DNA from: Psammoneis japonica | Lineage: Eukaryota | Length of the DNA stretch: 64,000 bases | Assembly: GCA_008632985.1 (NCBI GenBank) | Contig: QPGO01000032.1 | Location: forward strand, 307,330-371,329 | Reading direction: 5' to 3' | Shown here: positions 531 to 59,479 of the stretch, one piece after another | Numbering within the stretch: position 1 is the first letter of the stretch | Layout of the letters: the number at the start of each line of letters is the position of its first letter | Translations under genes and position numbers: made by a program | The notes under the pieces: generated by a model | The model's input: the letters and a program-made list of their open reading frames with translations, nothing else | Databases searched by the model: none | Told to the model about the DNA's origin: nothing

Positions 531-1331
531 TGGTAGCAAAACGCTTTAAGCTCAAAGCAGGAGGAGATAAAGAACAAATTGATGTGATAGAGATATTGAA
601 ATAGTGGGAGTCGCCGATGTAAATGTACCTCAGTTGGACTTGTGAGAGGAATAAAAGGACAACGCTCAAAATGCTGATACTTTTTGTGGGTCGACCTTCG
701 CTTCGTTTGCAATACCGGGAACGGGGTCAATGACTCATGCTTCTGAACCCGATTTTGTCCATCGTAACTGCTGGTACCGACTTGCGTAGGAATCACGCCC
801 AATAGTGTTTCATGTTCGAGAACAGTACGTGCCTTTGGAAATGCCATGGACTTTATTCAGAAAAAGTGTGACCTTAAATAAACTAAAACTAGGGATAAAT
901 AGAGTACTTAATATCGTATCAAAATGAAAATGACTTGGTCTTTTCGATTCCTGTCCGGGCATTAGCTCTTTTATGAACAATACATAATAATTGTTTTGAC
1001 AATTGCCTCAAAATTTCAAATTTTTATCAATCAAATATTATGTTAAGCGAATATGTCCAACACTATGGAAGGCATATCTGCGTCCTGTTTCTGCTTTCCT
1101 CTTCAAACGCATATTTGTCCCAAAGCAGTAAGCTCTTAATGAGGGATGCTGGCTGATAAAAAAATCGACAATAATGAATTGGAAGGGACAGAACATTCAA
1201 GGCAATCGTGTTTCTTATTTAGGTCACGTGAGGCCCAACGGACTTTTTATGGTTGTTCATGCGTTCTGTCTGTCTTTCGTTCTGTTGTTAGTTCGGCTGT
1301 CGCGGTGGGGGAGCTTCTTCCGTACCACTTA

Positions 1332-2175
1332 CAGACCTCCCAGTTGGGAGTGACGGGGAGCACAAAATGCTGTGGCCAGTGCTTGTTTCTGCTGTCTGCT
1401 GCTCGCACGGTGTTGCCGCACCAAGCAAGAGAAACAGCACACAGAGTGGCAGATTGTGCAGCTTCTTGCCATTCATTTTTTTCCTTCAATTTTTTGTTCA
1501 AGTGCCAAAACACACCCCCCTTTGTTCGACCAGCGAAAAAGCTCTTTGGCTGCTTCAGCCAGCCTTCACAGCCCCCGTTTGGTGGGGGAGGAGGCTCTTT
1601 TTTTTGAGTGAACCATCAACTGTGCAACAAGCTTGTGCATGTTGGAAAATTCTTTGACTTTGCAAGGAACAGCGCAGCAGCATCTGGCCAAGGGCAAGAA
1701 CAAAGGCGGCAAGTGTTGACCCCCGGTTGAGTGTTGAACCCCCAGCACATCACGCCTTTTTGTCTTTTTTTGCCCCCACTGCTGACTCAGCATGTGCTGA
1801 AGGTTGTGAGTGCAGTGCCACAATGTTCAATGGCAAAGCTTCACAAGTGAGAGACATGGCGACACACCGGAACGCCGAAAAAAGCCAACACACATGCGCG
1901 CACCAATGCAAGCAAACAACCAACTGGCGTGTGCTTGCTCTCAAAAGTTGGGCATGAACACAACTGACAGTTTTCTTTGATGTTGTTGGTGTGTTCTGTG
2001 TGTCATGGTGAGCACAGTGGCAAGTGACAAGCTGCGGAGCCTTGAGCTCACGAGCAGAGGCGCCAGCAGCAGCACACACAGGAGAGAGAGAGAGGAAGAG
2101 ACCCGTTCACACTCATCCACTTTGGGCTTGCTTTTTGGAATGGTGAGCTGTGGTCCAAGTTGAAAAACACTTTTT
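1332..2175. other. TpA-free block, probable decayed repeat remnant
   Basis: No TA dinucleotide found in ~845 bp by manual scan; TG/CA-rich; no recognisable protein. Confidence 0.75.
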
Positions 2176-2367
2176 TAAAGAGTGCCGAGATGGAGAGGGA
2201 AATCTTCCCTGAGTTGCGAAACTTTTTGGATTGAATCGGAATTGAATGCGTGGAATGAACGCATGGCCGGAACGGCGAAGTTGCGCGTTTCCGGGTTTCT
2301 TTTGTGGCTGCACCCACATTCAAGCTTGCGAGCTTGCGGCGGCGTTGAGCGCAGACAAGAGTTGACC

Positions 2368-4687
2368 ATGAGCACCGAGATCTCCTCGTCGTTGTCACGG
2401 CTCCCCTCCCAAAAGCAGAGCACTGCTAATGGAGATAGCGACGAAAGGGTTCAAGAAGAGGAGCGTCTGTCATCGGACTTGGCCTTGTTCCTTTCGAATC
2501 CGTCGCTGAAGGCAGCCTTAGCGGATGGGTCTCTGGACTTGGCGTCTTACTCGTCGACGGTGGAGGAAGAATTGCAAGAGCTGGAAACCAAATGCATTGA
2601 TGCATACCGGTCGAAATCAAAGGAGATTTCAGTGCTAAGGAATGACTTGGAATCGTGTGACGCAGTCTTGGGAGCGCTGCAGGAAATGCTTCTGGGGTTT
2701 CAGGCTGATCTAGGCGGCCTTAGCGGTGATATCCGGAGCTTGCAAGACAAGAGCAAAACACTGGGCGTGCAGTTGAGAAACCGACGTAAGGCTGAAGCGG
2801 GTCTACGGGGGTTCCTAGAAAAGGTAGTGGTGGCGCCCAACTTGACAAACACTGTCTGTCGAGGTCCAGTCAATGGATTGTTTCTAGAAAGCGTGCAAGA
2901 GTTAAATTCGATTCATCATTCTGTACATTCGAAAGAACCGCAAGAGTGGTCGGCAAACCAGCCTCCATCAGAAACTGTTGCGGGCCAAGAAATGAAGCTC
3001 CATGTGCACAAGCTGCGCCTTGTTGCTGTATCGAGAACACGGGACTACTTCCTTTCGCAAATGGCACTCTTGAGAAGGCCGAAAACGAACGTGCGTATGA
3101 TTCAGGTTCACGGTCTCCTCAAATACTCGGATCTGCAAGACTTTCTGCAGGAAGCATGTCCTGAAATTGCTACTGAGATTTACAACGTCTATGTCGAATC
3201 CATGGGCAAGGTGAGTCGCGTTTGATTTGTAAATGTCCATCTTTTCCTGATTCCTTCTCAACACTTCGTTTCATTGTATTGTCTCCCTCGCGCAGACACT
3301 CTATGCTCTGTTCCGTACATACCAAGCTCAGTTGCATCAATTGGATTCTACCAAAGTTTCTGCCACTCGTCATGATGTCATTGCTATTGATGACGCGGCG
3401 CTTCGAGATGCCTTGACCACAAAGGCCAAAAAACGAGTGGATAGTTTCTGTTTGGGAAACCGTATTGACAATGTCTTGGACACGACGGAACCCATTTTGG
3501 CGCATGTTGCGCTAGCCGAGGGCAAGAGGTATCCTTACGAGATGCTCTTTTGTTCCTTGATGATACACCTTATGGACGCCGTCACCAACGAACACGTATT
3601 CTGTCGTCAGTTCTTCAAGCGCGATGCATTTGGACCACTGTTTCATCATACCTTGGGCCTCTTGTTGGAACAGTTGGAGAATTATCTCTTTTCCTGTCAT
3701 GATGGCTTGGCTCTCTTGCTCATGATCAAGACTACCCACGCGCATGGGCGATTAATGAAAAACCGCAAAGTGCATTCGATGGACGGCTTCTTCCAGAACG
3801 TGACGCAGTTGCTCTGGCCTCGTCTCAAGACCGTCATGGATGCTCATCTTCGAAGCATCAAGAGCGCCACGGCACAGAAATTGGGTGGCGTTGATATGCA
3901 TGCGCACTATGTATCGAGACGTTATGCAGAGTTTACCTGCTCCATTCTGTTGATTCTGCACAAGGGCAACACCACGTCGAACCAACCCAAGTCACCGCTA
4001 AAGAGAGCCGTCTCTAGTGACAGCAACAAGAGCGCGCCGTCGGTAAAGCCTTCTTCAGAATCGTTGAGTGGCTCTATGCACCGCGGAAGTGCTGGGGATA
4101 TGCTGTTGCAGGACCTCCAGGCCATTGCGGACGAGACGGTGTTATTGTTAGAACGTTTGGCCGATGAACACGCGTCTAACAAGAAGCGAATCGTATTTAT
4201 GATTAACAACTTGGATCAGATCATTTGCATCTTTCAAGAACGACGCGTCGTTGGGAAGGAACTGAACAAGTTTGTAGAGCTCCTCATGACGCAACGAGAA
4301 ATGTTTGTGGAAGAGGAACTGCTTCAGACCTTTTCCAAAATGATTGCCTTTGTGCAGCAAACCGAAGGTCATATTTCATCCAGCGCAAAAATGACAAGTA
4401 ACCAAGTGGTGAACGCACAAGTGGTGGAGAGTTTGGTTCGAGAGTTTGCCGTCAATTGGAAGCAGGGAATTGAACAAATCAACCGCAACGTTCTGAGTTA
4501 CTTCTCCAACTTTCGAAACGGAATGGAGATTTTGAAGCAAGTCTTAACGCAGCTCTTGCTCTATTACACACGATTCCAAGATATCATCAGAAAGGTGTGG
4601 AGATCAAAGCCCCCCGCGTTCTGCAAGGATCTTGTCAATACGAGTGTCATTCTTGCTGAAATCAAAAAGTACGCTTTGGCTATCTGA
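2368..4687 (+). CDS. VPS52: GARP complex subunit Vps52; exons 2368-3210 and 3296-4687
   Basis: CDAVLGALQEMLLGFQADLGGLSGDIRSLQ...LRNRR, LLWPR, FSNFRNGMEILKQVLTQLLLYYTRF. GTGAGT...CGCAG intron 3211-3295 joins the two ORFs in frame. Confidence 0.95.
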
Positions 4688-25713: not shown

Positions 25714-25789
25714 GTTTATCAGCTGTCAAGGTAAGTTGCGTGACCAGAGTAACAAAGCGGGAATTGAGAGGACTGGAGGATAAAGTGAT

Positions 25790-28700
25790 CATTCGGGAAC
25801 GCTGGCATCAAAGGTGCTCATGCGTTGAGTTTTGAACTTTTCGTTCTTTGAAAAGTCGTCAGTCACGAGTTTTCGGGACTCAACGGTCGGCTCGGCGCGC
25901 AGATGGCAACCCTCCTGCGCCGCAAAAATCATCTCCCAATCCAAGACTGCAACAACAGTCAACAAAACACTTCAGCACCCATTGCACTGCTTCTCCCTCT
26001 CAATGGGTCATTCAAACACTAAGATACAACCTTGTGTGCCATCTTTCGATGCATGCACTTTGCTTTGCCTCCTCCCTCCGCACTGACTCATCTCCCACCC
26101 CCCTTTCTGCTGAACGCCCACTCTTCCGCTGCTGCAGCCACTCCCGTGCTTCTTTGTGCTGTTCATTTTCATTTTCAACAAGCTTTTTTAACCCTGTGAT
26201 TAGCAAAAGGGACAAAGACATAGAAGGTGGAATGACCATCTTTGCCCTCAGTGCATGCAAAGAGCAGCAGCATCAGAAGTGACAAGGGGTGGCAGAACAA
26301 TGCTGTTTCTGCTGCTTCTTTTTCCTCTCTTGGCACGTTCTACAAGGGTGATGTAGCTGGCCTCGACTCTTGTGCAATTTGGAGCAAGGAATTTTGGGGG
26401 ACATGTGGCAGAAAGAGGCCACCCATGATGATGTGTTGTGGCACAAGCGAGTGGTGTGCGAAAAAAAAAACTGAGAAAATGCTGCTGAAAAAGTGAGCAG
26501 ATCAAACAATGATGGTGCAATGAGCTAAACTGAAATGCACGCAGACACATCACAATGACTGTGTGCATTGCCCATGCACTGACATGGCCATTGTCAACAA
26601 CAACTGAGCGAAGCTGCAATTGAGACACAGCAGCTGTCACGTTTTCAAATGCTGTGACATGACAAAAACCTGCAGAGGGAAAAAAGCAGGAAACAGGGCT
26701 GAACAAAAGGAAAACCAGCCTCAATGGAGAATGATGGCCGGTGCAAAACAAAATTGACAAAGACTGGCACATTTCTAAAAACCCAAAGCATGCCCCATGA
26801 GACAAGATGCTCACATTGCAGCACCACATTCTTCCAAACCACAAGCATCATTGCCCATTGCACAACCCAATGTGGGTCAAAAATGACAATGAGTTGACCA
26901 ACTCTAAGAAACACAGCAGGGGCAGCAAGCCTGTTGCCATTTTTGCATCTGCCTTCCACACCCTGTTGCTTGCCATCATCACTCTGATGGTGCCAACTCA
27001 GTCACTGGGCACTGGGCCCAGTCTTTTTGCCTTGCTTGTTTTTGTCAGCTCCCCCCCCCCCCCAGGACAATGCAGAGAGCTGATGAGCTGAAAAATTCAA
27101 GATCAGCTGAGTGTCATGTGTGTGCATGTCTTGGAGTCTGCACAAGGAATCCAATCACACAGAGAAGGACATGCAGGTGGGAATTCTTTCACATCATCTG
27201 TCAATGACAAGGATCATGTTGAGAGTGGGGAGCATCTGCCTCAGCATGGGGCTGGCAGAAAATGGGAAACAAGAGGTTTTGCACACACTGCTCCTTGACA
27301 ATGATCTTTGACAATTTGAACCCAAGTCAGAAGTGCACCACCTCCCAACAACTGGAGTGAATTGTGAAAACCTGCCAGACATTGTCACATTTGTGTGTGT
27401 TTGATGGTCATGTTGTGAAGCTTGCAACAAAGCACACCATGATGCATGCCACAGCACCTTGTCAAAAACTTGTTGTCTCTGTGTGGCATTTTGCACAAAA
27501 AAGAGAGACTCTGCCACCCTTGTGAATGCACTGTCTTCTTCATTGTCAGCACCCCCAATGTTGCTTGCAGCAAGGCTGCCCCAGAGAGAGAGAGAGAGGA
27601 GAGAGAGAGAGACTCAAGAAAACAGCACAGGACAAAGACCTCTGTTGACACTGCTGCTGCTCTTTCACATCAATGGCAAGTGCAAAAGCACTCTCTGCTT
27701 GCTGAATCAAATCAAGCAGCCATTTTTTCAGCTCAGCAGGTGACAGTGCGCAAAACTTAGAGCACCATCAATTGAGCTGGTTTTGGAGGTTGAACTTGCT
27801 TCTTTTGGGGGCAGCAGCTTAAGCCACAAGAAGTGTGGTGTTCCAAATTTGTCACTTGGTCTGACAGAATGACAGTCAATTTTTCCAGCAATCACAGATC
27901 TGCAATGTGCGTGATGCAACATTTTTGAACTGTGTTCACTGTGTCATTGTGACACAACACAATTCTTTGGTGTGGAGCAAATCTCCACCCATGGAGATTT
28001 GCTCCATGGTGGTTGAAGGGTCAAATCCTTGCCTTTCATCAAATGTCAATTTGGAGCCCTGTTCACAATTTAAAGCAGCTCTGCTGTGAAACAAATGGCA
28101 GCTTCAACCCAGATTGCAGAGTGGGTCAATTTGTGCTTCATTCAGCACCACTTTTAAGCTGCTGACTGACAAAAAAATGTGCCACAAACACAAACACAGT
28201 TTCTTGTGGTGCCAAGTCATTGGAGCTGACATGGCTGCAATTTGATTTGGTGTGTTTTGTTTTAGTCTGTGCTTGCACACTGGCACTCTGTTTTTGGCTG
28301 CAGCAGCAGATTTCTGGCTGCAGGCAGTGTCAACCAATTGCCAGGATTGGCTGCAATCAGCCTCACTTTGATTGCAATTGCTGTTGCAAACTGATTGCAA
28401 TGACCTGATTGTCAGGAAAGAGCCAAGGTTGCAATCACAATCGACTGTTGCAATCATTCCAATCAAAATTGAGCTCTTTTTGTGGCTGAAATCAGCAAAA
28501 CAGCTCAATTTCTTTGCCTGCAGTGGGCTTTTCTCCTTGCGGAGTGTGCTCTTGCCAGAGAGCACCCCTGCGTGGGGGGCGCCTGGCTGGCAGGGTGATG
28601 CTGCAGAAAACTTTGCAATTGGTGACACTGGCTGCAGGTGAACACCAAGTGGCATCCATGCTCTCTGTGCAGCTCTTCCTTGTGCTTTGTGAGTGCACTG

Positions 28701-31700
28701 GTGGTGTTGTCTCTTGCAAAAAACTGCAGAAGGTTGTTCAGATGCCATGCTTGTCAAGTGCAGGTGTTAACTTGCTTGTCAGAGAGAACCACAGGCTCTC
28801 TGTGTGCCTGGCTCCAGGTTCTGGGCTGCATGAGTGGCAGCTGCAACCAAGGCTTTGGGACAAAAAAAACATTTGGCATTGGGGGACTTTGTGGAAAGAT
28901 TGGAGGGACGATTGGCAGCGCATTGTTGCAGCTGTTCAATGAGGATGACATTTGTCACAAAGACTTGCTGCTCTGCAACCGTGACACAGAAAGATTGGCA
29001 CAAAAGGCTTTCAGCCATTGAAAATTGCATGGCATGCAATCAACAAAGCTCAATTTCACACAGTTCTACTGGCACCCCAGCCAATCCTCCCATGAATCCA
29101 GTCTTGCTGGGACTTCAAACCAGGATAAAAGGAGAATGACTTGCCCACCATTCACCAGAGCTCTTCATTGCTCCCAACAAGAAGAGAAACTCATTTCAAA
29201 TGGCTGCTGCAAATTTCTCCACATGGCATTTTGCTGCTGCAAAACAACTCTGTGCATCTGGCGGTTCAGCACATCATTGCTTTTTGAAGTTTTGTTCACC
29301 CACTGCCATTCAGAGGTCAATCCTTTGAACAAGTCACTGCAGAGTTTGAAAATTCAAGTGGTGCTGGGGACAATGTGACAAGGGGCCAATGCCACCAGAT
29401 CAGCCCTGCAATGCTCAGCCACAGTTCTCCAAGTCTCATCTGGGGTTGCACAGACACCACCAGTGTCCTCAGCTTGTTGGTTGTTGTCAGGCACGTTGGC
29501 ACGTCATGGGGTCCTTTCCTGCGGAGTTTGGAAGCTTGCTCTTCTGCTTCTGTTGGGGACAAGTTGCTGTGGGGCCACAACACCACAAGATCAACCTTGG
29601 CCAGCTTGCCAGACACTGCCAGTGTCTTTCAGATGTGGCTCTTTCACTGTAGAGTTTGGAAGTGTCTGCTTCACCAGTGGAGACAAGGTGGCATGAGGCC
29701 ACAGCCGCACAAACAGGGCTCAAACAGTTGCTTCAAATTTCAAAAATGAGTGGGACAAAAGCCCACAAAAAATGACCACTTGCAAAAACTGGCTTGGCTC
29801 TGTTGAAAAAAAGGCACATGACTGCCACACAAAACAACACACAAACACAGAGTGGTGCACCCAAGCAGCACCCAAGCAATGACAACATTGCGGGAAGGCA
29901 CACCAACAGAGCCCATGACTTTGCACACACCAGCCCACAAAGAAAAGCCACAGGAAAGGCAAGAGGTTAGAAAAATGTGACATGGGAGAAGCTGTGCTTG
30001 CAGCAAACAACAAGTTGCACTTTTGCAGTTTCTTTGTTTCTTGAAGCTCAGGCAGCTGACAAAAAAAAGCCAAGAAGGAAGAGAGAAACCAATGCTGCAA
30101 TGCTGCCCAAAGGTGAGCCAACTCTCTTTAAGTTGCAAAAGATTAGAACATGATGCAACACCAGCGAAGCCAAGAATCCAAGATGCAAACTGGCTGCAAA
30201 AGACAATGGGCAGCAGCTTGAGTGACAAAGGAGGGAGTGAAGGCAGTGGAGTGACAGCAACAAGAGCACGTGCCAATCATCAAATGAGTGCCAGCTGACA
30301 AGCAAACAAATGAAAATGAGCCATCATGTTCCACCCATTCTTGTCTCTGCTTTGCCAATTTTTTGGCTGTGAACACTCAGCATTTGTGGCAGCTGCACTG
30401 CAAACATGTGCACAAATCATCTCATCAAGAGATCCCACGCAATGTGAGACCAATTTCCTCAAGTCTGGTTCCCCATTTTGATGCTCACAGTTAACCACAA
30501 CAAGCCATTCATTTGCAATGAAGGAGCACTCATCAAGAACACAAGATTCTTGCCAAGCAAGCTTCATTTCCAAGTGAGAGAGACAGTGGCTGCATTTTCC
30601 AGATGGAGGGTGTGGCTTGTGGTGATCCAATGCCAGATGCCAGAGGTTGCCAGCTGGGGCACTGTGTGTGATTTGGCCGCTGGTGCTGTTCCCTTGCAGA
30701 GTTGTTTGTGTGGTGGCAAGGGTTGTGTGCCCCCCGACAAAGAGCTTCCTTCACTGTCATTTTCTCATGGCCACTGCTTGCCCTTTTCTGCATGAGCCAG
30801 AGGCATCCTTTTGTTGCACTGCTGCAGTGGCACTGCAATGTTGGGCATCTAAAAACAAGGCTCGCTGCAGAGCTGCTGCCCAACAACCAGAAAATCAAGT
30901 GTTCTTTGTGCTGGCAAAAAGAAACAGACCACCAACAAGCAAGCCACTGCCCCACGCATCTTGCTCTGTCACTTTGAGTTGCTGGCAAGATTTTGGAATG
31001 TGCATGGGTGTGCACACCGACATGTTGCTTGAAGTCCTCTGAAACAAAGAAACAAAAGAGAAGGCGCCACTCCTGGAACTGCTTCGACACTCATGATCCA
31101 GGCAGCTTCCAAGCTTTTGAACTTTTGTCAAGGCATGACAAAAACAGCCAACATCTTGAGCTATCCAGGATGCTTTTCTCTATAAGCTTCATTTCTGCCA
31201 ACATGAATTCCATGTGCTCGAGTCGTCGCGAAACTTCGCCATCTTGGAAGTGTGGGTGGGTGTGGAAGCTGAGCCAGAAACTGGCACAGCTCAAGCACCA
31301 GAAGTGGCAAATTGCAGCCCCATCATGTGTGGGGGCCACTCTCACTCCAAAGGAGACATGGAGGCAGCTGCAGCATGGGTTGGAAGCATGTTGGAAGTGC
31401 TGGGGTGGGTGGCAGTGGGTTGGGCATGGTGTCTTTGCGCAAGCATGGGAACTTGATCTGCCATCTCACAGGAGCCTCAGCCACTGTGGCAGCAATGCTG
31501 GGAGCAAAATCTGGGGCATGGGGGGACACAGAAGCAGACTTGGAAATCACAGGCACCATTGGCAAATGCATGGAAGAACCTGCAGCTTGTGCCAATTTGA
31601 GAAGAAGGCACCATGGGAAGAACCCAGGGCACCACATGCCATGTCTCCTTGCTGTCCTTGGGAGTGCAAAATGTTTTGAAAACCAGCTGTGCCACAAGAA

Positions 31701-31890
31701 AACATGGGGGCCATGGAAGAAATGCTCGCAGCAGAAAGGACATGAACTTCTGATCATCAACTTGATGGAGCAGAGGCAGAACACCACCAGTGACACCCAC
31801 ACGAGAAGAACATGGGACATTCCTTTCTCCATCAGCTGATGAGGAAATCTCGCGGGCTCGTCGGTCCCCCTTTTTCCGAGGCGTCCTTGC
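25790..31890. other. TpA- and CpG-depleted degenerate block, probably decayed repeats; family not recognised
   Basis: Few TA, mostly in TTA/CTA/TAA/TAG contexts; few CG; overlapping Cys/His-rich, Tyr-poor ORFs in all frames. Confidence 0.75.
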
Positions 31891-32089
31891 TCTACGACTA
31901 GATGAGACAATTCCTCAATGAAATGGTATGCGATAGATATGTTCAAAGAAGGTTTGATCATAAAGCAGATACCACGAGTTTCCACAAAATGAAACTATGT
32001 AGTATGTAGTCTGTAATTGATATGGTATTGCATTGCAGATGTGTGTCTTGATAGATTCACAACGGTATTGAAGAAGCGTCTCGTGTGAA

Positions 32090-45340: not shown

Positions 45341-46719
45341 TTTTCTCAGAGACTTTTTGTGCCGATCTTAGTCAGTCGCGTCTCTACTGTTGCTTCAAGG
45401 AAGGATCTATCTTTAACAGCGATTGGAGGGTATCTTATCCAACTACTGTCTATACCCTGGATTCAATGCATTGCCTGTGAAAGTTGAAAGTGAAAAGGTA
45501 AGGTGTAAATACCGGTGCCGATACGGTAAGGTTGTTGGTGTTGGCAGTTAGTTGAAGCCGAATGCCGGTCGAACGAGTCGAGAGGTGGCGCGCAGAGTGC
45601 ATGCATTTTGTTGTTTTTTTTGGTTTTTTGTTGCTTTTTGCAGTTTTTCGTTGTTGTGAAAATCGTGTTTGTTCCCCCGTTTGTTTGGCAAGACAAAATG
45701 CAACAGAGCGCCACAGCCGGCCCACCTTGGTTCAGGGGTGGGTGCTGCTGGCTGGTGCCTTGGCAGGTGAGAGATGTTGAGAGGTGCAAGTTGCTGTCAG
45801 AGCAGTGGGAACAGAGCTGCTCTCTCCTCTTTGCCCCCCCCCCCCCCCCCNTGCTCTTTCTTTTTTCATGCTCGCTGCTCTGCTCGGAGAGATCTTCAAC
45901 AGCCAACCCTCTGCTGGTGCAAGTGAAGTGGCAAAAACAAAGGGGAAAAGCTGTCTGGCTGCACTGTGTGAGCCCAGGGGCAAGGCAGCAGCACCCTGGA
46001 TTGCCGGCATTGTGAAGTCACAGCAGCAAGAGATGAGAACCCGCTCACAGCGTGCCACACATGAGAAAACAACAATCCCATGGCAAGTGTGCATGGCACA
46101 ACAAAAAAGGGGGCAGCCAGTTTTAACTTGGCCCTTAAATTTATTTTTCAATGCTGTGCCACCTCCCTGGGCAGCACTTTTTGGCTTTGCCTTCTTGTGG
46201 CACACTGTTTGAAAGCTGCCTGGTGTGATTTTTTGTGTCATGAGGAAGAAGCAGCAGTCTCCACCACTGAGCACAAAAAAAACAGCCTCTGGAAAAGAGC
46301 AGGGTGTGGGTGCAAATGTTCAGCTGTGGTGCCAATTTTGTTTGGAGGGCAGGATTGGAGCTGTGTGAGTGCAGCAGCAGGGTGAGAAAGTTGAGAAACT
46401 TCAGGGCAAGAAATGTGAAGTGAACAAACAGGGGCACCCCCTGTTTCACTTGTTGCACCCACGCTCCAACCAGCACACTGCCTGCCAACCACATCTGGGA
46501 CACCAACAATCTGGGTGTCAAACACCTCCCATCAAGATTTTTTGAAATGAAGCCAGGCAAATTCTTCATTCAATCCAAGACTTTGCCGATTTGTCCAATC
46601 TGCATTCATGAAATGTTCGACAACAAACGTCTGCATTCCTGAAGTTGACATTTTCTCTGCCGCATGCACAAAATAATGACTCTCTGCAAATCATCACTTT
46701 TTTCTTTCTTGCTTTGCAC

Positions 46720-49700
46720 CATGACCACTCCCTCTCCCTCTCCTTCTCCTTTGGTCAATGTCAAGCTCTTGGCTGAAGTTCTCCACCCTGCCGACCTTCC
46801 TGACGTGCCTGCTGTTGCCCTCACAACTGATGCCATTCGTGACATTGTTCTCAAGATGCTCAAGCATCATGATCAGCATGTCTCTCCACTTCTTTTCACC
46901 CTTGGCTCTGTGATGCTTTCTCAAACCAAGAAACGCTCCTGTCCCCATCAGAGCCAGTGGGCTTCCCACTTTCATGTTGCTCTCCATCCCGTGGTTCCGG
47001 AAGGGTCTGCCTTTGACTTCCTCTCCTTCTGCAATCAGGCGCTTTCCTTTCTGCTCCAAAAGTGGCACCTTCATCCCATGTCCCACTTCGCTGTGTTCTG
47101 CTCCATCAGTTCCTTCTCTAACTTCCCACACCCAGACCATTCGCTGGCCCCGTTGTGGACAACCCATGGGTGTGGCATTGCACCTTCATGACACCCACTT
47201 GCAACTTCTTTGATGAGAAGGCCCATGGCATCCTCGCTGGCCCATCCCCTGCCCTCTGTGGTGCCTCTCGGTGCACCTGCAAGTTCCTTTTGTTGCATCT
47301 CCACTCCTTCCTTGTTGGGAAAATTTCCAGTGCTGCTGCCAACCCCATTCTTCAATCCTTTCAAGACTGTCCTGCCTTCCTTGATCTCATTGGCATTGGA
47401 CCTTCCCAGTGTCCCGCCAGCTCTTCTCAGCTCCGTCACTGTTCCCTTTGAGTCTTCTGTGTCTCTGCTGCTTCCAATGCGGTTTGGAACACTCTCCTCA
47501 ATGTCGCCAACCCACCCAACTCTCCGCCTGCTCCATTTTCCATTTTGGGCACTTCTGCTGCCATCACCCCCTTTCCTGATTCCGCCAACTTCTCTGCTGC
47601 TTACAATGGCCTGTCAGAGCTCATCTCCTGCCAAAGCAACATGGTCGTGGTTGTCTCTGATTGGCTCAAGCTTCCTTTGACTCAGCCCAGCATCACCTGT
47701 CTCCTCTCTGCTGCAAACCTTCAGTCTCTCATTCCTGTGTTCTCTGCCCATGATGCCCTTCCAATCAAGTGCAAGCTCCTCCTCTTCCCATCTCCTTGCG
47801 CCATCGCTCTTGCAGATTCCAACCTGCACAACTGTTCCGGCTTCCCCTCCAACCTCCTTGCCTCTGAAATGGACACTTCCCTTGCTGCTGATGCAGCCTC
47901 CCCATCCTGTGCCTCTGCTGCTCATCAGCCACGCCTGCCCCCTCTTGTGACTCTTTTTCCTGTCAGGCTCTTGAGCTGCTTGCTCAAGATTGGCAGATCC
48001 CTGAGCCCCAGGATCTGCCCCCTGCTGAGCCTCTTCCATGCTTCCATCCACAAGCTTGCTCTCCAAATGCTCAGCCTCCTCCCTCCAAACGTCCCCACCC
48101 TTCCTCCGACACTTCTGCACTTCCAACTGATGTTCCTGATGCAATCATGCAGACTGAGGCTGATGACTCTGTCACTCCTCAGCAGCCCCAGTGCGAGATG
48201 GAACTCTTGGACACTCCTCTTTACAAAGCCGCTGCTTGGGCTGCATCCCTGACCTCGCTTCTCTCAGCGACCTCATCGCCTCGCAGAACCCACCAAACCC
48301 CTTTTGTTCCTGGTCTTTTTCATCTGCAGATGCTTCCTCACTGCCTGCTGCTGTGCGTGGCCATCTTCACCAGGAGCATCCTCGCCTGTCTCTTTCCCAA
48401 GTGTCTGCTGCATTCTTTGATGCTGCTGGCTTGCATGTCTGCAGACATTGCAATCACAGCCAATGTGCCTGCTTCTCTTCCATGCACCTCCACAATCACT
48501 TGCAGAATGAGCACTTTGCTCCCTGCTCCACCCTTGATGCCAACATCATCCTTTCATCTCTCCCTGACATTGGTGACTGGCACTCTGCACTCCAATGGCT
48601 TCACTCTTTCACACCTGTGCCTCTGCCTTTCCAAGCTTCCTGCTGCCACAAGCTCTCTCTTTCTGCCAAGAAAGAGCTCTGCTCTGCTCTTCACCATGTG
48701 GTGCGCTGGATCCTTGCTTCCTCCCAACCCCTGTCTGATCCCACTCATCTCATTCCTTTGTGGCAGCGTGACTCTGAGCCTTTTTGGAAGCTGCTGTTGC
48801 TCTTTGAAGCCCTTGTCCTTGCCCCCATCCCTTGGTGCTCTAAATTTGCTCCCACTGTCACCTTGCACCTGGCTCTCTTCCATTGTGGCTCCATTCACCA
48901 GCTCCATCAAGAAGCCTGTTCCCCATGCATCTCGCCTTTCTGTCTCTCCTCCCAACTTCTCCGCCTCCCCCTGCTGTTTTTCCACCCAAGTTTGTGCTGA
49001 TGAAGACAACTTCCACTCCGCCTGCTCCAAGCTCACCTCCGCACTTCCAGCAGCCGCTGTTGCCCCCAAGTGCCTCCTCAACATCCTCAAGCTCTGTCCA
49101 TCCCGCCTGCATCCCTCCAACATTCCCACTGCTCCCTCAACTTGATCTGCTTCCTCCCTTCACAATGAGCCCATTGAGCTCTCCGTCAATGCTCTCCTTT
49201 CTGCTCTTTCCAAGTGCAAACCTGGCACCGCTGCTGGCATCTTTGCAGACTCCACTGATCTCTTCAAATCTTGTGTGCTCCACTCTGCCAGAACCCCACA
49301 GGAGACTCCCAGCATCCTCATTTGCCCTCCTTCCGTGAGCTCATCCTTCTTCTCCTTCATGGCTCCATCCCCTCCTCCATCCATCCCTTGCTTGCCTCGA
49401 ATTACTTTGTCGCCCTCCACAAGGATGCCACCGATCTGGAGAAACTCCATCCCATCGGTGTTGGAACTGCCCTCCGACATGTCACCGGCTTGGTCATCAT
49501 GACCCTGTTTGGCTCTGCTTTCACAGAATGCCCCCTTCCTGATGGTCAATTTGGCACTGGTGTTAAAGGCGGCCTTGACTGTCTCATCCATTCTGCCCAT
49601 GCCAACATTGGGCTCCATCTTTCTGTGGCAGATCCAGCCAAAGTCCTCCTTCTTTTGGATTTGGTCAACATGTTCAACGAAGCTTCCTGTGATGCCTGTC

Positions 49701-49993
49701 ACCACCCACTTTCCTCCATTGATGCCTTCCACCCACTTCTTCCCTTCTTTGATCTTGTGTGCCAAAACTCCAATGCCTGCTGGTGTTGTCGGCCAGACTC
49801 CACCTGGGATTCCTTTGTTCAAGAAGAAGGCTTTGCCCAAGGCTGCCCCCTTGGTCCTGTCTTTGTGAGCCTTGTCCTCTCTCTTGTCCTTTGCCTGATT
49901 AACCAAGAACTTGGTGAGTGCATTCCAGGCTGCTCTCCCACCTCTGTGGGCTCCTTCATCAATGACGCCCATGCTTTTCTTCCCCATCCATGA
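46720..49993 (+). mobile_element. Decayed non-LTR retrotransposon (CRE/RLE-like), truncated just after the RT catalytic motif; 5' end approximate
   Basis: C2H2-like CRHC...HLHNHLQNEH; RT motifs FVALHKD, LHPIGVGTALRH, QFGTGVKGG, LDLVNMFN, EEGFAQGCPLGP, FIND (degenerate [YF]xDD). Confidence 0.85.
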
Positions 49994-50054
49994 CTTGTGA
50001 GAAGCATGAGATGCGCTTCACTTTTGTAGACTGTCTTGTTTCTTCAGGCATTGA

Positions 50055-50600
50055 GAAGGAAAAGTGGGTGTCATGTGCAGTCAATGTGCAGTCAATGTGC
50101 AGTCATGCAAGTGAGGGGTGATTTTTGTGAGCATGTGTGCAGTCTGTGCATGCAAAATTCAAGTGGATTCTGGTGCCACAGTTGGTGTGTTGGGACGCTG
50201 TTGTTGTCTTGTCAGCAGCACATTGGTGGTCTCTGCAGACAGCAGGTCAGTGTTCCACAGTTTGGGCATCCTGCCATTGTCTCAGGGGATTGTGCATGGC
50301 ATTCCCACATCTCAGATCAGCTCCAGACATCCCAATGGGAGGATGGTGCAGGTTTGTCCCTTTACAAACATTGAAGGGCCCTGCTCTGGATGGGCTGGCA
50401 CTCGTTCAGACAGAATGCCAACCTGCCATCTACAGAGACTGCCATGGTGCTGCTGACAAGAAAACAACAGCATCCCAACACACCAGCTGTGGCACCAGAA
50501 TTCACTTGAGCTTTGAGAGCACAGACGGCAAAACTTGCACATCAAAACCACCCCTTGCTTGCATGACTGCATCAACTGCATGATGCCCACTTTTCCTTTT
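50055..50600. repeat. Long imperfect inverted repeat (foldback / MITE-like), arms ~250 bp
   Basis: ttctggtgccacagttggtgtgttgggacgctgttgttgtcttgtcagcagcac on the left matches the reverse complement of ~50447-50500. The + and - ORFs 50036 and 50312 both read FWCHSWCVG.LL.SCQQH. Confidence 0.9.
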
Positions 50601-50829
50601 TGGAAACAGGGTCTGTGTTGTGCAAAATGAGACAAAAAACATGCAGAGTGACATTGTCATGACAATGTTTGCTTGGGGCAATGTTGCCGGCCGGCAACTG
50701 CCACTGCACCACCACCATGCAACTGCAGTGTTTAAAAAATGGGGGACAGCACGCACGTGCAGAAAAAAACTGAAAAACAATTCTCAGAAAAAATTGCTTC
50801 ACCTCAATGACCTGTCAGCTTTGTTGCAT

Positions 50830-50985
50830 GTGATTGTGCCATCTCCTCTTGTCACTGTGCAGCATGCCAGAGCACCGCTTCATCTGCTGTGGGCACAAAA
50901 GGCTGCCGTGATTGTGCCATCTCCTCTTGTCACTGTGCAGCATGCCAGAGCACCACTTCATCCACTGTGGGCACAAAAGGCTGCC
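50830..50985 (+). repeat. 78-bp tandem duplication
   Basis: tgattgtgccatctcctcttgtcactgtgcagcatgccagagcacc...gggcacaaaaggctgcc twice. Confidence 0.95.
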
Positions 50986-51049
50986 AATCACTGTTGCACT
51001 TCCTTCTTGAAAAAGATGGGATGTCCTTTGATGACTTGTGCACCATTCT

Positions 51050-54000
51050 GAGGCACTGAGCAATGCTGCAAAGCAGAGCAATGCTGCATTTTCACATCAA
51101 CGCCAACTGGCTTTGTTGGAAATTCATCCATTGCACAAGTGGCCCTGCACACTCCATGGTTGGTTTTGCTGTGCTGTTTGCAGCCACCAGCATGGATGTC
51201 ATTGTCGTGATTGACAACTTGACATCATGACACCACATTGAAGAAGGCTGCTGTTGTGCATGATGCAGTGGCAGAGCAAGCCAGAGTTGATGCCATGCAG
51301 TTGCAAAAACATTTGTTGGCTCTGACAGACAAGTCCAGAGATCCAGAGCTCCTGCAAGGTCAGGTGGCTGAGTTGAAGGAGATGATCAGCCGGCTTGAGT
51401 CCATCATCAACACCAAGGTGAGCACTGTGCAGAAACAATCTAGTTTTTTTTGCATTTGTGCCAGATTTCTGCCATGCTGTTGCCAGTTTGCTGCTGGACA
51501 TTGCTTCAAATGTTGCTGTCATGGAGGCCAAGTTTCAAGCTGATGCAGTCATTTGCCCTGCTGCAGTGCATGGCAAATGTGAAGTGGCCACAGCCAATGA
51601 CAATGACTTCCCCATGTTGGTGGGAGATCCCATGCTGCCAGTTCATGATTTCAAACCTGAAAGAAACAAGCAATGGCATGGATCTTTCCAGCTGGCATGA
51701 TCTCATCTGTCTGTTGTGGAGGAAGCTGTGTGTGATGTTCTTAAACAGAAAGGGGAGAAAACAACTTGCCAAGGAAATGAGTCCATTTGGGACAGACAAT
51801 TTCATGTTGCACATGGCTGTTGTGGTTGGAATGGACTGTGATGATGATCCAGGCAGAGCATCCAATGTTGGCTCAGCTAAAATTTGAGATCTTGTTGGAG
51901 AAAAAGGATTCAGTGCTGAACAATTGTTTCAGCACTGTTCCAAGGAGCAGAGACGGGTTTGCCAACGGCAGTCTTCAGGACATTTGCGCTGGCAATTTTG
52001 TGCAAGCTGGGAGACACTGTTGATGATGACACCAGCACAGCAAACAACAAATGCACCCATCACAATCCTCCTCCAACAACCTTTCCAGTGTTCCTTAAAG
52101 AATTTGGCAGTGGCGGCTCTGTGGAGACAGACAAAAGCCTGGGACTGGCTCAACGCTGCAGCTCCAAAGCAAGTGTGCACTCTTTCATGGAGGACAAGGG
52201 CTTGCATGGATTTTCTTTGATCAGATGAAATGAACAAGATGGAGGTGGCTGCTGTTGTTGGTTGCCTGCAGTGCCACAGAGGAAGCAAGCATCCCAGCAT
52301 TCCAACGTGCACTTCCAGACACCCTTGTTGAAACCTGTGAGGGTTCTGGAGTCAACAACAATGGCAAATGACTGATGCAATGGGTGTGTCATCATTCAGA
52401 AGATGCCCAGTTGCCACCCATCAGCAAAGCTGATGAAGCCATTGAGCTCATTGATGGCAAGGCTTGCCTTTGTGTTAAAACCAAAATCCATGCATCAATG
52501 AAAGGGATGCATTGCCAAACCGTGCTTGCCTTTCAGAAGAAGGCCTGGCTTGTTGCAGCTATAATTGCAAGTCAGGAAGTCACTGTGCCAAGCATGTGGT
52601 TGATGTTCATGTTCTGGAAGCCATGCAAAAACTGCCCCACTTGTTGTTGAACAGTCTTGCAGCACATGCTCACCATGAGCTTGCTGTGCAATGGGGCAAT
52701 GCAGAGCCTGCTCTTGAAAGCATGATGAAGAAAGTCTTGTTGATGACTTGCAATGGCTGGGGTCAGTTATGAATCCAGCCAAGCACTGTGCCACCATCGA
52801 TGAGTCAAAAACAATGTGAGAGCTGCTCAATGACCATGCTGTTGGAACAGAGAAATCCAAACTGATGCCAGAACCACCACCGGCATGGCATCTGTGCAAA
52901 CCGCTGAGAGACTGTCAGCGCATTGATCCATTGCAGAAATTGATCAAGCATGTGCAGAAAGCAACAAAAACAATGAACAGCGATGCAACTCTGAGTGCAA
53001 CTCCCATTGGGATGCCCAACTGGGCTTTGATGGCAGCTGCCATGGATTGCTTGACAGACCTCCAAAAGGATGAAACTGGTCTCACACAAACAAATCACAA
53101 GAGGAAGCATCCGGCTTTTGACTGCTGTGGGAGCAATCCAAGGTGAGTGCTGTCTGCTCGCATTTGATGATTCATCAGTGCAAAGCAATGCCATTGCTGC
53201 TGTTGCAGAGGTGTTGGGGAGTTGCAGCAGGCCCACAAAGCAAAAAGCTGCTGCTGAGTTGGTGCAAAGGGCCAGGGGTGGAGTGATGACAAGGAGCAAA
53301 ATGGAGAAGCAAAAGAAGAAGCAACAAAAGCATCACACAGGGCACAAGAGTTGCTGCTTCAGAAATGAGCATTGCAAGAATGGTGAGCTTGCTCATCAAA
53401 TGCATTGAGTCACCACCATGCCAACACGTCCTGCTGTGTTGGCCCCAATGGACAAAAGGGACAGGAGCTGGAAGTCACACCATGAGAAACCAGCTCTGCA
53501 TTGAGAGTTGTTGGACAGTCTTGGTTTGTCAAGAGATGACAAATGTGAGGATCTGAGATGCTGTGATGACCATGGGATTCAAGAGGAAAAAAAAACATTG
53601 TGCATCAGTTTCATGATCCCAAAGACTTGTGAATCGAGTGCAGGAATTGACCAGCACCCAGTCACTCTGTAAATTGCTTGCACTGCAAGTGCAAAATCAT
53701 CCTTGGCAGATTCATCAAGCAGCAGCAGGGGTGAGCTGTTGAGAGAAGGAAACTTGCAGAAATCAAGTGGCTGCAGCACAACATCATGGCAAAGGGGTGA
53801 ATGGAGAATTGGCAGCATTGCAGCCAGGTGGGATTCAAAGCTTGGAAGCTGATGGAAGAGAGGGATTGACAGGTTTGCCCACAATGCAAAAAAATTTTGA
53901 AGGCAATTTTGCAACCAATTCTCCAAGCTGCTCAACTCGATGTGCGCCTGAAGGACTTGCCTGGAAAGAAGAAAGCAAGAATTGCACAAAACAATCCAAC

Positions 54001-55260
54001 TCTCTCAAGACTTGCCAAGAGAGACAGAATTGTCCCATCGTCACACCAAAAGGCCTCCACCCAGAACAGGTTGATGAGAAAACTGGATTCTTGGATTTGC
54101 TCTGTTTGCATTGCCACGTTGTGATTGTTTGCGGTGGAGACATGGAAGTTGCAAAGAGCTGTGTTAGCTCACTCACTTGGCATGAAGAATGGTGCGCATG
54201 CTTTGAGTTTGCATGGAACAGAACAGTTGCTTCAATCAGCAGCCTTGCCAGCAAGTGCAACGCAATGCCAAAGGTTGTGAAAAAGGTGCTGACATCAAAA
54301 ATGGCAGCAGTCAAGGTGGTGCGCAACAACTGGCTGAGGCATGCAACTGTTGCTCAAGATGAAAAATTGCTGAGTGAGAAATGGGTTGGGCAAAGTGAAG
54401 CAAAGCACCCTGTGTTCCACAGCAACACTGGAGCACCTCATGAAAACAATGGCAAGCCATCAGATGCTGAGTTGCAGTGCCTGACTTGCTCCAGCTGCTG
54501 TGATGTGTGTGGGGGCAAGGGAGGCACATGCACCCAACCCTGCGGCTGAATGGGGGCACACTTGAAATTCACCCAGGAGCAATGTCAGACTCAGATCATT
54601 TCAACAAAAGTGGGCTGCTTGAGGTGCAGCAGAAATTCCAAGAGGAAGATGGTGGAACATCTTTCCTCAACATCCCAGATCAAGGTCACCAATCCACGCA
54701 GGTGGCTTGGCAGAGTGAATGCCAGTTTGTGCTTTGGCTGACATTTTCTCAGAATGATCACAAATTCAACACATGTGAAGTGCTTCAGTTGTCGTCAGTG
54801 GCAGCAGATGGGTTGGGCAATGCACAGGCTGTCCATGTCTCAAAGTCATTGGGGTGTGTCAAAGTCGGCATCAAGGTCAACTCAAGTGCCAAAGTGCAAT
54901 GAGCTTGTGACATCTGGCTCACCCTTGGATTTCAGGCCAACTTTGTGTGCACAAGCCTGCAACGTAAACAGCAGCTGCTTTGCAGTGATTTTAATTGCAG
55001 ACTCTTTTTGGTCATTTGGAACTCTCAGTTTGGTTTTACCGTGTAATTTCTCAAAATTCACTGCACGCGAGAAATCCAGTAATCCGTTTATTTTTCCCAG
55101 CAATTTGCGTTTTTTCTGGAACAATATACTGGATTGGAATTTTTTAACGGATTAATTACTGGATGAGGCATTTTGGGTAAAATAATGACCTAATTACTGG
55201 GACATTCCAGAAAACGACCTTTTTTTACCGGAATTATTTCTGGATGCCTTGCATCGTCCG
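51050..55260 (+). mobile_element. Decayed PIF/Harbinger-ISL2EU-like DNA transposon: XPG/FEN1-like nuclease, SWIM-like finger, THAP-like segment and DDE_Tnp_4-type transposase; ends approximate
   Basis: EAKFQADAVI...ANDNDF and DCDDDPG..NVG..KI (XPG-I/H3TH); IHASMK...CSYNCKSG...VHV; LRCCDDH; KPSDAELQCLTCSSCC..GKGG..QPCG, GAMSDSDHF, DQGH, GNAQAV. Confidence 0.75.
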
Positions 55261-55698
55261 TTTTTCCGTTAGATGACGCGACAATACAGTGTGTCAACGA
55301 TCATCAACGTTCATTATTGCGCACCTGTGCTTGCACCATGATGATAAAAGCCGCAACCTCATTCTTCATCTCTTTCGTTGCTGTGTTCCGTTTGATGCAA
55401 ACAATGACAGAATGACAAAGCGTTGGCTCTGCAAGTGTTTTTCATTTCTTTGGCCGTCAATTTCCGCAGCGAGGCAAGCATTGTGGTGTTTGTTGGCCCC
55501 ACTCCACCCAAGTTCCCAAGAAAGCCATCTCCTGAGCTTTTGTTTTTCGCGCATTGTGGTGGTCCCCTTCTCTTGTGGCAAGGATCCACGACGGTGCACA
55601 CATCCGCGGGGCTCCGTGCTTCTGCATTCCGTCACACACACGGCGGACGTGTGGCGACTGGCATCTCCCCACCACCAATGCATCCAAGAAAGACCGTG

Positions 55699-55833
55699 GT
55701 CATGCCATGCTTTTTTCATCAGTGGGAGCCACATCGGTCCATCGGTCCAATGATTTGCGTCAGCCAGTCATGCCATGCTTTTTTCATCAGTGGGAGCTGC
55801 ATCGGTCCATCGGTCCAATGATTTGCGTCAGCC
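55699..55833 (+). repeat. 68-bp tandem duplication
   Basis: gtcatgccatgcttttttcatcagtgggagc(ca/tg)catcggtccatcggtccaatgatttgcgtcagcc twice. Confidence 0.95.
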
Positions 55834-56249
55834 GATGCGAGCGCAGTGTCGCTCCGTCCTTGTCCCCATCCGCGGCAGCGGTGTCGCGCAACGTGACGAT
55901 TGATGCCATGTGTCTGCCTCACCTTCTGGCTCTCCCGACTTTTGGTCTGTCGCCTGGAGGACTGCTGTGCCTTCGTCAGCTTGTCCCACAGCATTTGTCT
56001 GTCGTCTGATTTGGGCGGTGCACCGAGTGAAGCTCTGCACGGAGGCCCCACTGATGAACCTTCTAGTGCCATCCCTCTGATGCGTGTCAAGCCAACATCC
56101 AACCGGCGAATCTAGTGTGTCACCGTCTTTTTCCTCATCAACAGCACACCCAGTGACGTGCCTGCACTGTTGCCCTTTGCTCGTTGGATCCCTTTCAGTT
56201 GTCGATGATGAACTCGGTTCCTCTGGGACGCAAAATGTGCACGGTGTGC

Positions 56250-56847
56250 ACCAAACTGTCACATGTTGTTTGTTTTGCCAGTTCTCACATGTTTTCTGAC
56301 ACGCGTGGCATGCTTTTGGCTTTGCAATTTCCCCTGCACAGTCCATCTCCCTCCACTCCGAGGTTGCAACATAGCGATCTCTTGGTGATTCATTGTCTGG
56401 ACTTGTGATGTGCTTTTTTAGCCACGGCAAGAAGAGGCACTCGTGGAGAATGTCTTCTGCCACGAAGTTGCTGCATGCATTGTCACAGACCGCCGCCGCA
56501 GTGCACTCCGTCCACCCAAAGTGCGTTGCCCCGAAAATTTCCTCTCCCTCATCTTGCACACGTTCAATCTCAATGCACCTTTCTCCTTTTACAGGAATCC
56601 CATGCTTGCCGTTGCCAAGACACAAAACAGACAGCAGCTTGTGTTTCCGAAGAGAAGCTTGAGCTTCCTCCTCATCCTTGCACAGGGGATGGGGCTTGTA
56701 GCGGATTCTTTCTTTGTAAGTGTCTGAACCATTGTCGTCAGTGCCGTTGTAATCGTCTGCTTCATCTTCATCAAACTCGACCTCAACGTGTTCTGTTTCG
56801 CCTTTGCCCTCGCCTCCCTCTTCCTCCATCTTGGTTGGCTCTGACAC
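56250..56847 (-). pseudogene. Degenerate protein-coding remnant, probably transposon-derived
   Basis: Protein-like reading (acidic stretch, KLLSVLCL, HECLFLPWL, YVATSEWREMD) inside the repeat block; family not identified. Confidence 0.4.
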
Positions 56848-57104
56848 TCTCTTTTTTGCACCCTAGAATGCGAATTTGACAGCGAGTGAAGGAAACATCA
56901 AGGGTGTGTTGTGCTTGAATGACAACACATCACTTGCTGGGAGGGTGTCTCGCGTCATTCCCACTCTGACGCAGGTGAGTGTTCTCGTCTAGATTCAGTT
57001 TTTGTTGTTGAGAGTTGGCCCAGACACTCTCTTCCAGACACCCTAGAATGCAAATTTGACAGAGTGCAGGAAACATCAAGGCTGTGTCATGCTTGAATGA
57101 CAAT
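56834..57104 (+). repeat. Two diverged ~90-bp copies spaced 180 bp apart
   Basis: gacactctctt...accctagaatgc.aatttgacag...ggaaacatcaagg.tgtgt..tgcttgaatgacaa near 56842 and 57023. Confidence 0.85.
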
Positions 57105-58120: not shown

Positions 58121-58199
58121 GGATGAGCACCCCAATTGTGTCACAAAAAAGTTGTCAGCTGAGAGCTCTGGCCATTTTGCTGTGCTCTTTGGGTGGGTT

Positions 58200-59400: not shown

Positions 59401-59479
59401 TGGGATCTGGCGCAGGTGCCTCCTCCTCTTCCTCACTCAAGAACACTGTTTGTGTCCAAAGGACAATCATCTCAAAGGG

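Follow-up and report, generated by a model that had tools for sequence, protein, structure and literature searches.

In this work, we describe a block of some 6 kb in the genome of the diatom Psammoneis japonica, designated B1, which is depleted of both TA and CG dinucleotides and which likely represents a repeat- or foreign-derived, probably silenced island rewritten by two separate mutational processes. B1 lies in a stretch of 64,000 nucleotides (assembly GCA_008632985.1, contig QPGO01000032.1, positions 307,330 to 371,329 of the forward strand), the whole of which is hereafter referred to as the window and numbered from its first letter.

The first process would be a fast hypermutation specific for TpA, changing A:T to G:C pairs (T>C or A>G) on both strands and site by site, in DNA that is already in place; it would be limited to the element or island, with a spill-over of at most ~100-250 bp (e.g., at 25782-25921, where CG is dense and TA absent). 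The second would be a decay of CpG to TpG or CpA through deamination of 5-methylcytosine, as expected of methylated diatom repeats, and, being slower, it would leave graded CG values. Comparisons of sequences within the window and with related retroelements from metagenomes indicate the direction of the TA change, its specificity, its occurrence on both strands, the rule imposed by its flanking bases, its separability from CG loss, and its presence in other genomes. From the specificity, completeness and sharp limits of TA loss, we infer that the first process is enzymatic; it would serve to defend the genome, acting in place on DNA, and would be of the same kind as that reported in Bigelowiella natans, and the second process would be driven by methylation.

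Depletion of TA and CG in the window

Expected dinucleotide counts were derived from the rates in the normal parts of the window (2500-25700 and 32000-45500). On this basis, the 6101 bp at 25790-31890 contain 27 TA where 238 were expected, and 66 CG where 349 were expected, together with 650 TG (463 expected) and 705 CA (426 expected); the deficit of CG and TA amounts to 494 sites and the surplus of TG and CA to 466 (from 889 expected to 1355). Across ~26000-31900, both dinucleotides fall together, with 0-8 TA and 0-11 CG per 500-bp step. The longest run of B1 without TA spans 852 bp (26906-27757), for which the probability at the normal TA rate is ~2e-15. An initial annotation of this DNA had described only a few dozen TA in the 6 kb, with survivors that were mostly YTAR-like (Y, pyrimidine; R, purine), i.e., TTAA, TTAG and CTAA, and with GTAC, ATAT, GTAT and ATAC almost missing; the counts bear this description out. 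YTAR accounts for 17 of the 27 surviving TA, its expected share being 0.169 (binomial p 1e-7), and RTAY for a single one, with an expected share of 0.306 (p 7e-4). TTAA (7 observed, 9.8 expected), TTAG (5, 11.0) and CTAA (5, 8.8) are largely retained; GTAC, ATAT and GTAT do not occur (19.8, 17.0 and 19.9 expected), and ATAC occurs once (16.0 expected). The uneven depletion of NTAN tetranucleotides that the same annotation postulated was also confirmed, as uniform depletion was rejected (chi2 69.8, a value reached in none of 200,000 simulated multinomials).

The edges of B1 are sharp. On the left, TA is found at 25781 and then not until 26020, with CG dense up to 25921; on the right, CG is back at 31851 and TA at 31893, in agreement with the abrupt return to normal composition at ~31890, preceded by CpG some 40 bp sooner, that had been reported for this stretch. 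Likewise, the short patch at ~31155-31240 said to retain both dinucleotides was found as described (Table 1).

As a feature, the 6-kb block is real, but it is not singular. Two similar blocks, B2 and B3, occupy much of the right part of the window, further TA-free stretches lie outside the blocks (Table 1), and TA-poor DNA totals 24.8 kb, i.e., 39% of the window. TA erasure is near total in the blocks, with observed/expected ratios (o/e) of 0.03-0.1 over 6-9 kb, and TG and CA reach o/e values of 1.5-2.1 in TA-poor intervals, compared with about 1.1-1.3 elsewhere. GC content is even across the window (~0.43-0.54) and unchanged where TA was lost (0.47-0.50), whereas dinucleotide content is uneven. 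In each of the three blocks, CA is about as frequent as TG, and the total of pyrimidine-purine steps is 0.230-0.238 in the blocks versus 0.242 in normal parts; such an unchanged total is predicted by transitions and not by transversions.

Furthermore, TA loss can be separated from CG loss. TA-free DNA with CG o/e of 0.83-1.09 occurs at 2177-2426, 25782-26019 and 55346-56063; in no case is the CG-poor domain wider than the TA-free one, every CG-free stretch of at least 200 bp is TA-poor, and CG decay is graded, with o/e from 0.0 to 1.09 while TA is absent throughout. The single joint loss of TA and CG initially proposed does not fit these data, since TA loss reaches further and also occurs alone, both in the window and in metagenomic relatives (see below), and two processes of different speed therefore fit better. 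A single deaminase acting on both the A of TpA and the C of CpG would account for the coincidence of the two losses in the cores of all three blocks, and ADAT2 of trypanosomes and amphioxus is cited as deaminating C in DNA by Mettrop et al. (bioRxiv 10.64898/2026.01.13.699255). We nevertheless find it quite improbable, given the TA loss without CG loss in the window and in six metagenomic loci, and given the full range of CG values found where TA is uniformly absent.

The signature could in principle be an artefact of sequencing or assembly, with modified bases miscalled as TG or CA, and the window does differ at ~1% of sites from the contigs of a public DNA run (X1). These contigs, at a depth of ~40-55, however, cover B1 with few differences (e.g., 7 other letters in 26550-27063) and carry the same TA- and CG-poor sequence, with the reservation that X1 may be the sample from which the window was assembled, so that its independence is not certain. 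In addition, the signature recurs in related elements from independent metagenome assemblies, and the changes are coherent at the coding level, making an artefact the least credible of the explanations considered. Two other runs (X2 and X3) give little or no cover of B1.

Direction, strand symmetry and context of the change

Block B2 contains a decayed retroelement, which belongs to the sole repeat family that could be identified. The only useful Pfam lead was a weak RVT_1 match (E 0.024) in a 244-residue frame of B2 (49259-49990), for which 753 relatives were found against 1.84 billion representatives (best E 6.9e-51). Full-length relatives of this reverse transcriptase measure ~1200-1300 aa, and a tblastn map located an ORF1-like part at 46802-47859 and residues ~9-595 of the reverse-transcriptase open reading frame (ORF2) at 48302-49984, in three frames. 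The retroelement alignment consensus displays a C-terminal Cys/His-Asp motif. An AP-endonuclease domain was also considered for this element and was not borne out, as Pfam gave only RVT_1 in three full-length relatives.

The dead reverse transcriptase was compared with its intact relatives at 48.3-50.0 kb, the relatives among themselves serving as baseline. Tyrosines of the relatives (941 aligned pairs) correspond in the window to Cys in 25%, His in 17% and Tyr in 8% of cases; at baseline, Tyr is kept in 38% and replaced by His in 7%, and Cys falls outside the seven commonest partners listed (each at least 3%). For arginines, the window has His in 25%, Cys in 11% and Arg in 10% (baseline Arg 45%). 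Phe is retained in 54% (baseline 42%) and Asn in 33% (baseline 29%), and therefore T and A outside TA were not hit. The well-supported consensus columns agree: five Tyr columns hold His (2), Cys, Tyr and Phe (1 each) in the window; 11 Arg columns hold His (4), Lys (3), Cys (2), Gln (1) and Arg (1), i.e., His, Cys or Gln in 7 of 11; and 12 of 13 Phe columns are retained, with a Fisher p of 0.02 for Tyr versus Phe and Asn columns. The intact relatives of this family keep their Tyr codons and TA; a family already free of TA, an outcome that the initial annotation had asked to be examined, was thus not what we found.

These observations bear on selection as the cause, whereby repeats would avoid TA, as the target of transposon insertion or of UpA-cutting RNases, and CG because of methylation. 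RNA viruses and mRNAs are known to avoid CpG and UpA (PMC3829696); however, the depletion described here is near total in non-coding, dead sequence, conserved Tyr are replaced in a reverse transcriptase broken over three frames, and the sharp edges take in promoter-side DNA of host genes, which leaves selection scarcely plausible.

Tandem copies provided evidence on the timing of the change. Among overlapping pairs of such copies, adjacent double differences of the CA<->TG type number 45, and the next class reaches 7; counted per array, copies with CA and copies with TG coexist at 15 sites, a CG persists in one copy at 7, and a TA at 2. The CA<->TG differences between copies therefore indicate a change in place, after duplication. 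Moreover, differences between B1 and the X1 contigs comprise, in 19 rows, one CA<->TG double difference, one TA<->CA and 7 CG<->TG/CA. With 40 of 410 rows of window-versus-X1 differences examined, these are suggestive only, and would be compatible with a rewriting of TA and CG to TG and CA that is still segregating.

Metagenome contigs were scanned with the retroelement alignment, yielding 43 loci, most with TA o/e of 0.41-0.81. Six of them are TA-poor (TA o/e 0.11-0.33, namely 0.11 in L017, 0.21 in L027, 0.24 in L035, 0.28 in L025, 0.31 in L028 and 0.33 in L021), with CG o/e of 0.57-1.02; all six show Tyr replaced by Cys or His as in the window, with 39-56% of Arg retained. The window's element has no near relative at the DNA level among the 43 metagenomic loci, and the TA-poor loci belong to other genomes.

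The most depleted locus, L017, has 75% identity to the intact L013 and L014. The latter is apparently intact over 125-7641; its ORF1 encodes 1258 aa and matches nothing in Pfam, and its ORF2, with 1251 aa, matches RVT_1 only. At 146 TA sites of L013, which is of normal composition, L017 has CA at 56 and TG at 49 (105 of 146 together), TC at 17, TT at 6 and TA at 6. In the same comparison CG survives at 110 of 201 sites, a proportion in line with that of other dinucleotides (41-77% retained). The CA and TG outcomes are interleaved along the element, with 57 runs compared to 53.4 +/- 5.1 in shuffles. In a younger pair, L010 and L035 (96% identical, 48 differing sites), TA of L010 is TG or CA in L035 at 10 sites, and the reverse holds at 3.

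This strand symmetry is relevant to the possibility that retroelement RNA or cDNA was edited before integration, in the manner of ADAR or APOBEC, and that mutated copies were then inserted. In favour of such editing, the TA-poor zone of L017 and L028 stops close to the element end, and the sole identified family is a retroelement. Editing of one strand, however, predicts one direction of change rather than CA and TG interleaved in nearly equal numbers and without runs; CA<->TG changes arose in place between tandem copies; TA loss extends to flanking or non-element DNA (25782-26019 and 1331-2426); and adenines outside TA are untouched, as seen in the Asn and Phe controls. We consider pre-integration editing very improbable.

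The dependence of TA loss on flanking bases could be formulated as a simple rule. Relative to the normal parts, the o/e in the blocks is 0.73 for TTAA, 0.30 for CTAA/TTAG, 0 for ATAT and GTAC, and at most 0.07 for other NTAN classes. All 10 NTAN classes fit a product of half-site factors of ~0.85 for a 5' T, ~0.35 for a 5' C and ~0.08 for a 5' A or G; these factors were fitted by hand, and the statistical test covered only the departure from uniform depletion. The same order is found in the L013/L017 comparison, where T>C occurred at 31 of 53 sites with a 5' A, 9 of 15 with a 5' G, 15 of 54 with a 5' C and 7 of 24 with a 5' T, and A>G at 40 of 81 sites with a 3' C, 9 of 37 with a 3' T, 3 of 19 with a 3' A and 1 of 9 with a 3' G. 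As judged from these counts, the fast context is R-T-A on the T-bearing strand, equivalent to T-A-Y on the A-bearing strand with TAC as the best site, and TTAA, TTAG and CTAA survive because the change is slower at C-T-A and slowest at T-T-A. CpG loss depends weakly on context, CG flanked by G or C being somewhat better retained.

A different chemistry for the TA change was also weighed, in which the thymine of TpA in silenced DNA would be modified (to 5-hydroxymethyluracil or a base-J-like form) and would mispair with G, resulting in T>C. A T>C on one strand and an A>G on the other are indistinguishable from sequence, and 5-hydroxymethyluracil of dinoflagellates is enriched at TpA and TpC. 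Conversely, the titles and abstract openings of the papers listed, mainly on dinoflagellates, contained no report of hydroxymethyluracil in diatom DNA, and repair of a modified thymine predicts mixed substitutions, compared with which TC and TT outcomes in L017 are few. Modified thymine is thus an unlikely source of the change.

TA-poor copies may retain long open frames, as in L021 (1106 aa at 1-3318, 4 Tyr), L017 (706 and 398 aa at 260-3574, 0 Tyr) and L025 (a very long frame at 258-2489, 6 Tyr), all with an excess of His and Cys. Such frames are no proof of function, because TA>TG/CA cannot create in-frame stop codons.

Proposed processes and their relation to known systems

Taken with the sharply bounded blocks, the findings on context and strand support the proposal of the initial annotation that a sequence-context-specific, probably enzymatic process acted within a defined domain, which that annotation supposed to be one of chromatin. 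The enzyme of the first process could tentatively be an ADAT2/TadA-like deaminase acting on adenine in DNA, the leading candidate, which we hold to be possible rather than probable; adenine deamination, which yields inosine, a base read as G, would explain the change most simply. TadA and ADAT2 act on U33-A34-C35 of the anticodon loop, which the preference for T-A-Y, and for T-A-C in particular, recalls. For the second process, transposons and repeats of diatoms are reported to be CG-methylated via DNMT5 (PMC9998398).

With regard to the targets, a foreign or mobile origin may hold for B2, with its dead retroelement, and for B1, which has no recognisable gene and is single-copy in parts but contains high-copy repeats (Table 1), many copies of which, 85-95% alike, lie elsewhere in the same genome according to contig depth and joints. 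High-copy and single-copy segments of B1 are equally TA-free.

Several points weigh against this interpretation. No gene could be recognised in B1, with 0 of 50 ORFs at the Pfam cut-off and no Rfam match, and the ancestral state of this block was deduced from its composition and by analogy with the adjacent one. Some segments of B1 are single-copy at a likeness of at least 85% (e.g., 26340-27407, depth ~47-57), so that a RIP-like trigger by repeats (repeat-induced point mutation, RIP) does not follow from the data. The pairs of tandem copies overlap and are not independent, and 2 of their 10 alignments were uninformative. Between the window and X1, CG<->TG/CA differences make up similar shares of the rows examined inside B1 (7 of 19) and outside it (7 of 21); a faster CpG decay in the block is argued from its ~five-fold lower CG density, which is not a clean rate. 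The surviving TA could in part be newly made from CA or TG instead of spared. For P. japonica itself, the evidence is drawn from sequence.

The closest known system is that of Mettrop et al., who used mutation-accumulation lines of Bigelowiella natans and found the mutation rate of two integrated viral regions to exceed that of the remaining genome ~1000-fold. According to this preprint, 230 of the 231 changes recorded there were of the A>G or T>C type, every one of these falling at TpA; 124 clusters poor in TpA and rich in CpA and TpG, enriched in reverse transcriptase (RT) and DDE domains, were counted genome-wide; and an ADAT2-like DNA deaminase was proposed as a candidate. Our blocks resemble that system in a change confined to TpA, to TpG or CpA and on both strands; in the coupling of TpA depletion to CpA and TpG gain, within clusters of several kb with local limits; in RT-bearing sequences among the targets; and in the defence against foreign DNA proposed as the role of the process. 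They differ in the host, here a diatom (a stramenopile) and there a chlorarachniophyte (a rhizarian); in the degree of depletion, with TA o/e of 0.03-0.1 here compared with a Rho of 0.45 given for the nucleocytoplasmic large DNA virus region and a cluster cut-off of at most 0.43; in the strong CpG decay and the flanking-base rule found here; and in the kind of data, a scar in our case and a measured mutation rate in theirs. The main text of the preprint contains no occurrence of CpG, of flanking-base effects or of diatoms.

With fungal RIP the blocks share a dinucleotide-specific transition hypermutation that disables repeats, with sharp limits, some leakage into flanks, and a compositional scar. 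RIP converts CpA to TpA, raising TA and AT content; the chemistry is opposite here, where TpA is removed, CpA and TpG are raised and GC content is unchanged. The block was therefore not assigned to RIP, whose defining C>T at CpA is not the change seen here. Some diatoms carry RID-like DNMT4 genes (PMC9998398), for which no link to the process described here is known.

Ordinary decay of methylated CpG resembles the second process in the change of CG to TG or CA, in the replacement of Arg by His, Cys or Gln in the dead reverse transcriptase, and in CG<->TG/CA polymorphism; it explains half of the pattern, leaving TA loss and the TA-free stretches of normal CG unaccounted for. ADAR and APOBEC likewise represent a deaminase-based mutation of selfish elements. 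They act on RNA or single-stranded cDNA, producing one-strand, clustered changes in many contexts. The discussion of Mettrop et al. states that ADAR favours U before the edited A. The changes described here, by contrast, are strictly at TA, on both strands and unclustered, and are also found in DNA other than retroelements.

To our knowledge, mutational genome defence is nearly undescribed outside fungi (RIP) and animals (APOBEC and ADAR). Our literature search found no description of a TpA-specific loss in diatoms, and only the Bigelowiella preprint describes such a process; to that study of one species, the present analysis adds a diatom, environmental sequences, the flanking-base rule, a strand symmetry without runs, and independence from CpG decay. 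That a diatom chromosome and unrelated metagenomic retroelements bear one and the same scar suggests that the process is widespread among marine protists. It is possible, though we would not insist on it, that diatoms and, judging from the metagenomic loci, several further marine eukaryotes possess a defence based on a DNA adenine deaminase, an adenine-directed analogue of fungal RIP, that erases TpA from transposons and foreign DNA to saturation, in place and on both strands. If this were true, then together with the Bigelowiella case TpA hypermutation would be old and widespread across the stramenopile-alveolate-rhizarian (SAR) lineages, instead of a curiosity of one alga. In practical terms, the islands no longer match transposon protein models used in repeat annotation, and gene callers will report dead copies as proteins, as their Tyr-free, Cys/His-rich frames stay open; the findings also bear on estimates of mutation rate in diatoms and on the search for natural DNA adenine deaminases.

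Contents of the blocks and neighbouring genes

Table 1. Coordinates of the blocks, repeats and other features of the window.
Feature	Position	Strand	Description
Block B1	25782..31892		TA-free domain, left end 69 bp upstream of start codon 25713; CG-poor core ~26026-31850
High-copy repeat segment in B1	27942..28475		Summed contig depth ~2000 vs ~50 single-copy
Second high-copy segment in B1	29544..30077		Summed contig depth ~750
Patch of normal composition in B1	31155..31245		3 TA and 5 CG in 91 bp
Block B2	45550..54964		TA-poor and CG-poor; CG o/e 0.0-0.44 by TA-free stretch
Decayed retroelement in B2	46802..49987	+	Truncated at both ends
Block B3	57045..64000		TA-poor and CG-poor, continues to window end
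Tandem array, period 193, in B3	57391-58064		
Tandem array, period 387, in B3	58459-59397		
Tandem array, period 373, in B3	59550-60785		
TA-free stretch	1331..2426		Upstream of Vps52, into its first codons; CG o/e 0.4, then 1.09
TA-free stretches, CG near normal	55346..56589		CG o/e 0.62-0.86; overlap orphan ORF 55831-56862 (-)
FkbM-type methyltransferase ORF	start codon 25713	-	Left neighbour of block B1

The three blocks were searched against Pfam with 126 stop-to-stop ORFs (50 of 50 in B1, 43 of 74 in B2 and 33 of 67 in B3, i.e., the longer ones among 191 ORFs of at least 70 aa), none of which matched at the curated cut-off. Self-comparison of B1 revealed one 54-bp match and no other internal or cross-block homology, and the Rfam search of the whole window gave 0 matches.

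Within B1, the segment with a depth of ~2000 contains a perfect-looking hairpin in 27960-28030 (inverted repeat ~27975-28024) and reiterated 'TTGCAAT'-like words at 28320-28480, which together suggest a very abundant short non-autonomous repeat. The core of the patch of normal composition (31173-31243) resembles coding sequence on the minus strand. A contig of run X2 matches this core over 70 bp, with unrelated flanks on both sides, and the patch may be a captured or converted gene fragment; its identification as a small exon of a local gene was dropped, as both flanks of the X2 contig are missing from the window. In B2, strong strand asymmetry at 47000-50000 (GC skew ~-0.35, AT skew ~-0.3) overlaps the decayed retroelement, and the only N of the window is found at 45851, just inside the left part of the block.

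The orphan ORF on the minus strand at 55831-56862 has 344 codons. Its acidic N-terminal part retains TA and Tyr, and the rest is TA-free and Cys/His-rich, with CG near normal; a word-index search among proteins of 189-602 aa gave no relatives, and the ORF may be a young hypermutated gene.

B1 occupies intergenic space, with the FkbM-type ORF on its left and the next genes on its right. The genes in the normal parts of the window are intron-poor and eukaryotic, including Vps52, Rab GDI, a SNF2/bromodomain/RING helicase and a sulfotransferase, among others. The Rab GDI ORF shows 74-86% identity to its relatives among the matches listed, of which the named ones are mostly diatoms (Seminavis, Nitzschia, Amphora, Grammatophora, Cyclotella and others). 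An F-box-like ORF on the minus strand (14719-16143) includes a 72-bp tandem repeat at 14811-15021 (2.9 copies, 86% matches). Finally, a large SHPRH-like gene at 37094-43341 (+) consists of three successive ORFs of 432, 1243 and 411 aa, presumably interrupted by two short introns or frame changes, and displays an N-terminal SNF2 part, PHD, bromodomain, SHPRH helical, RING and helicase C domains.

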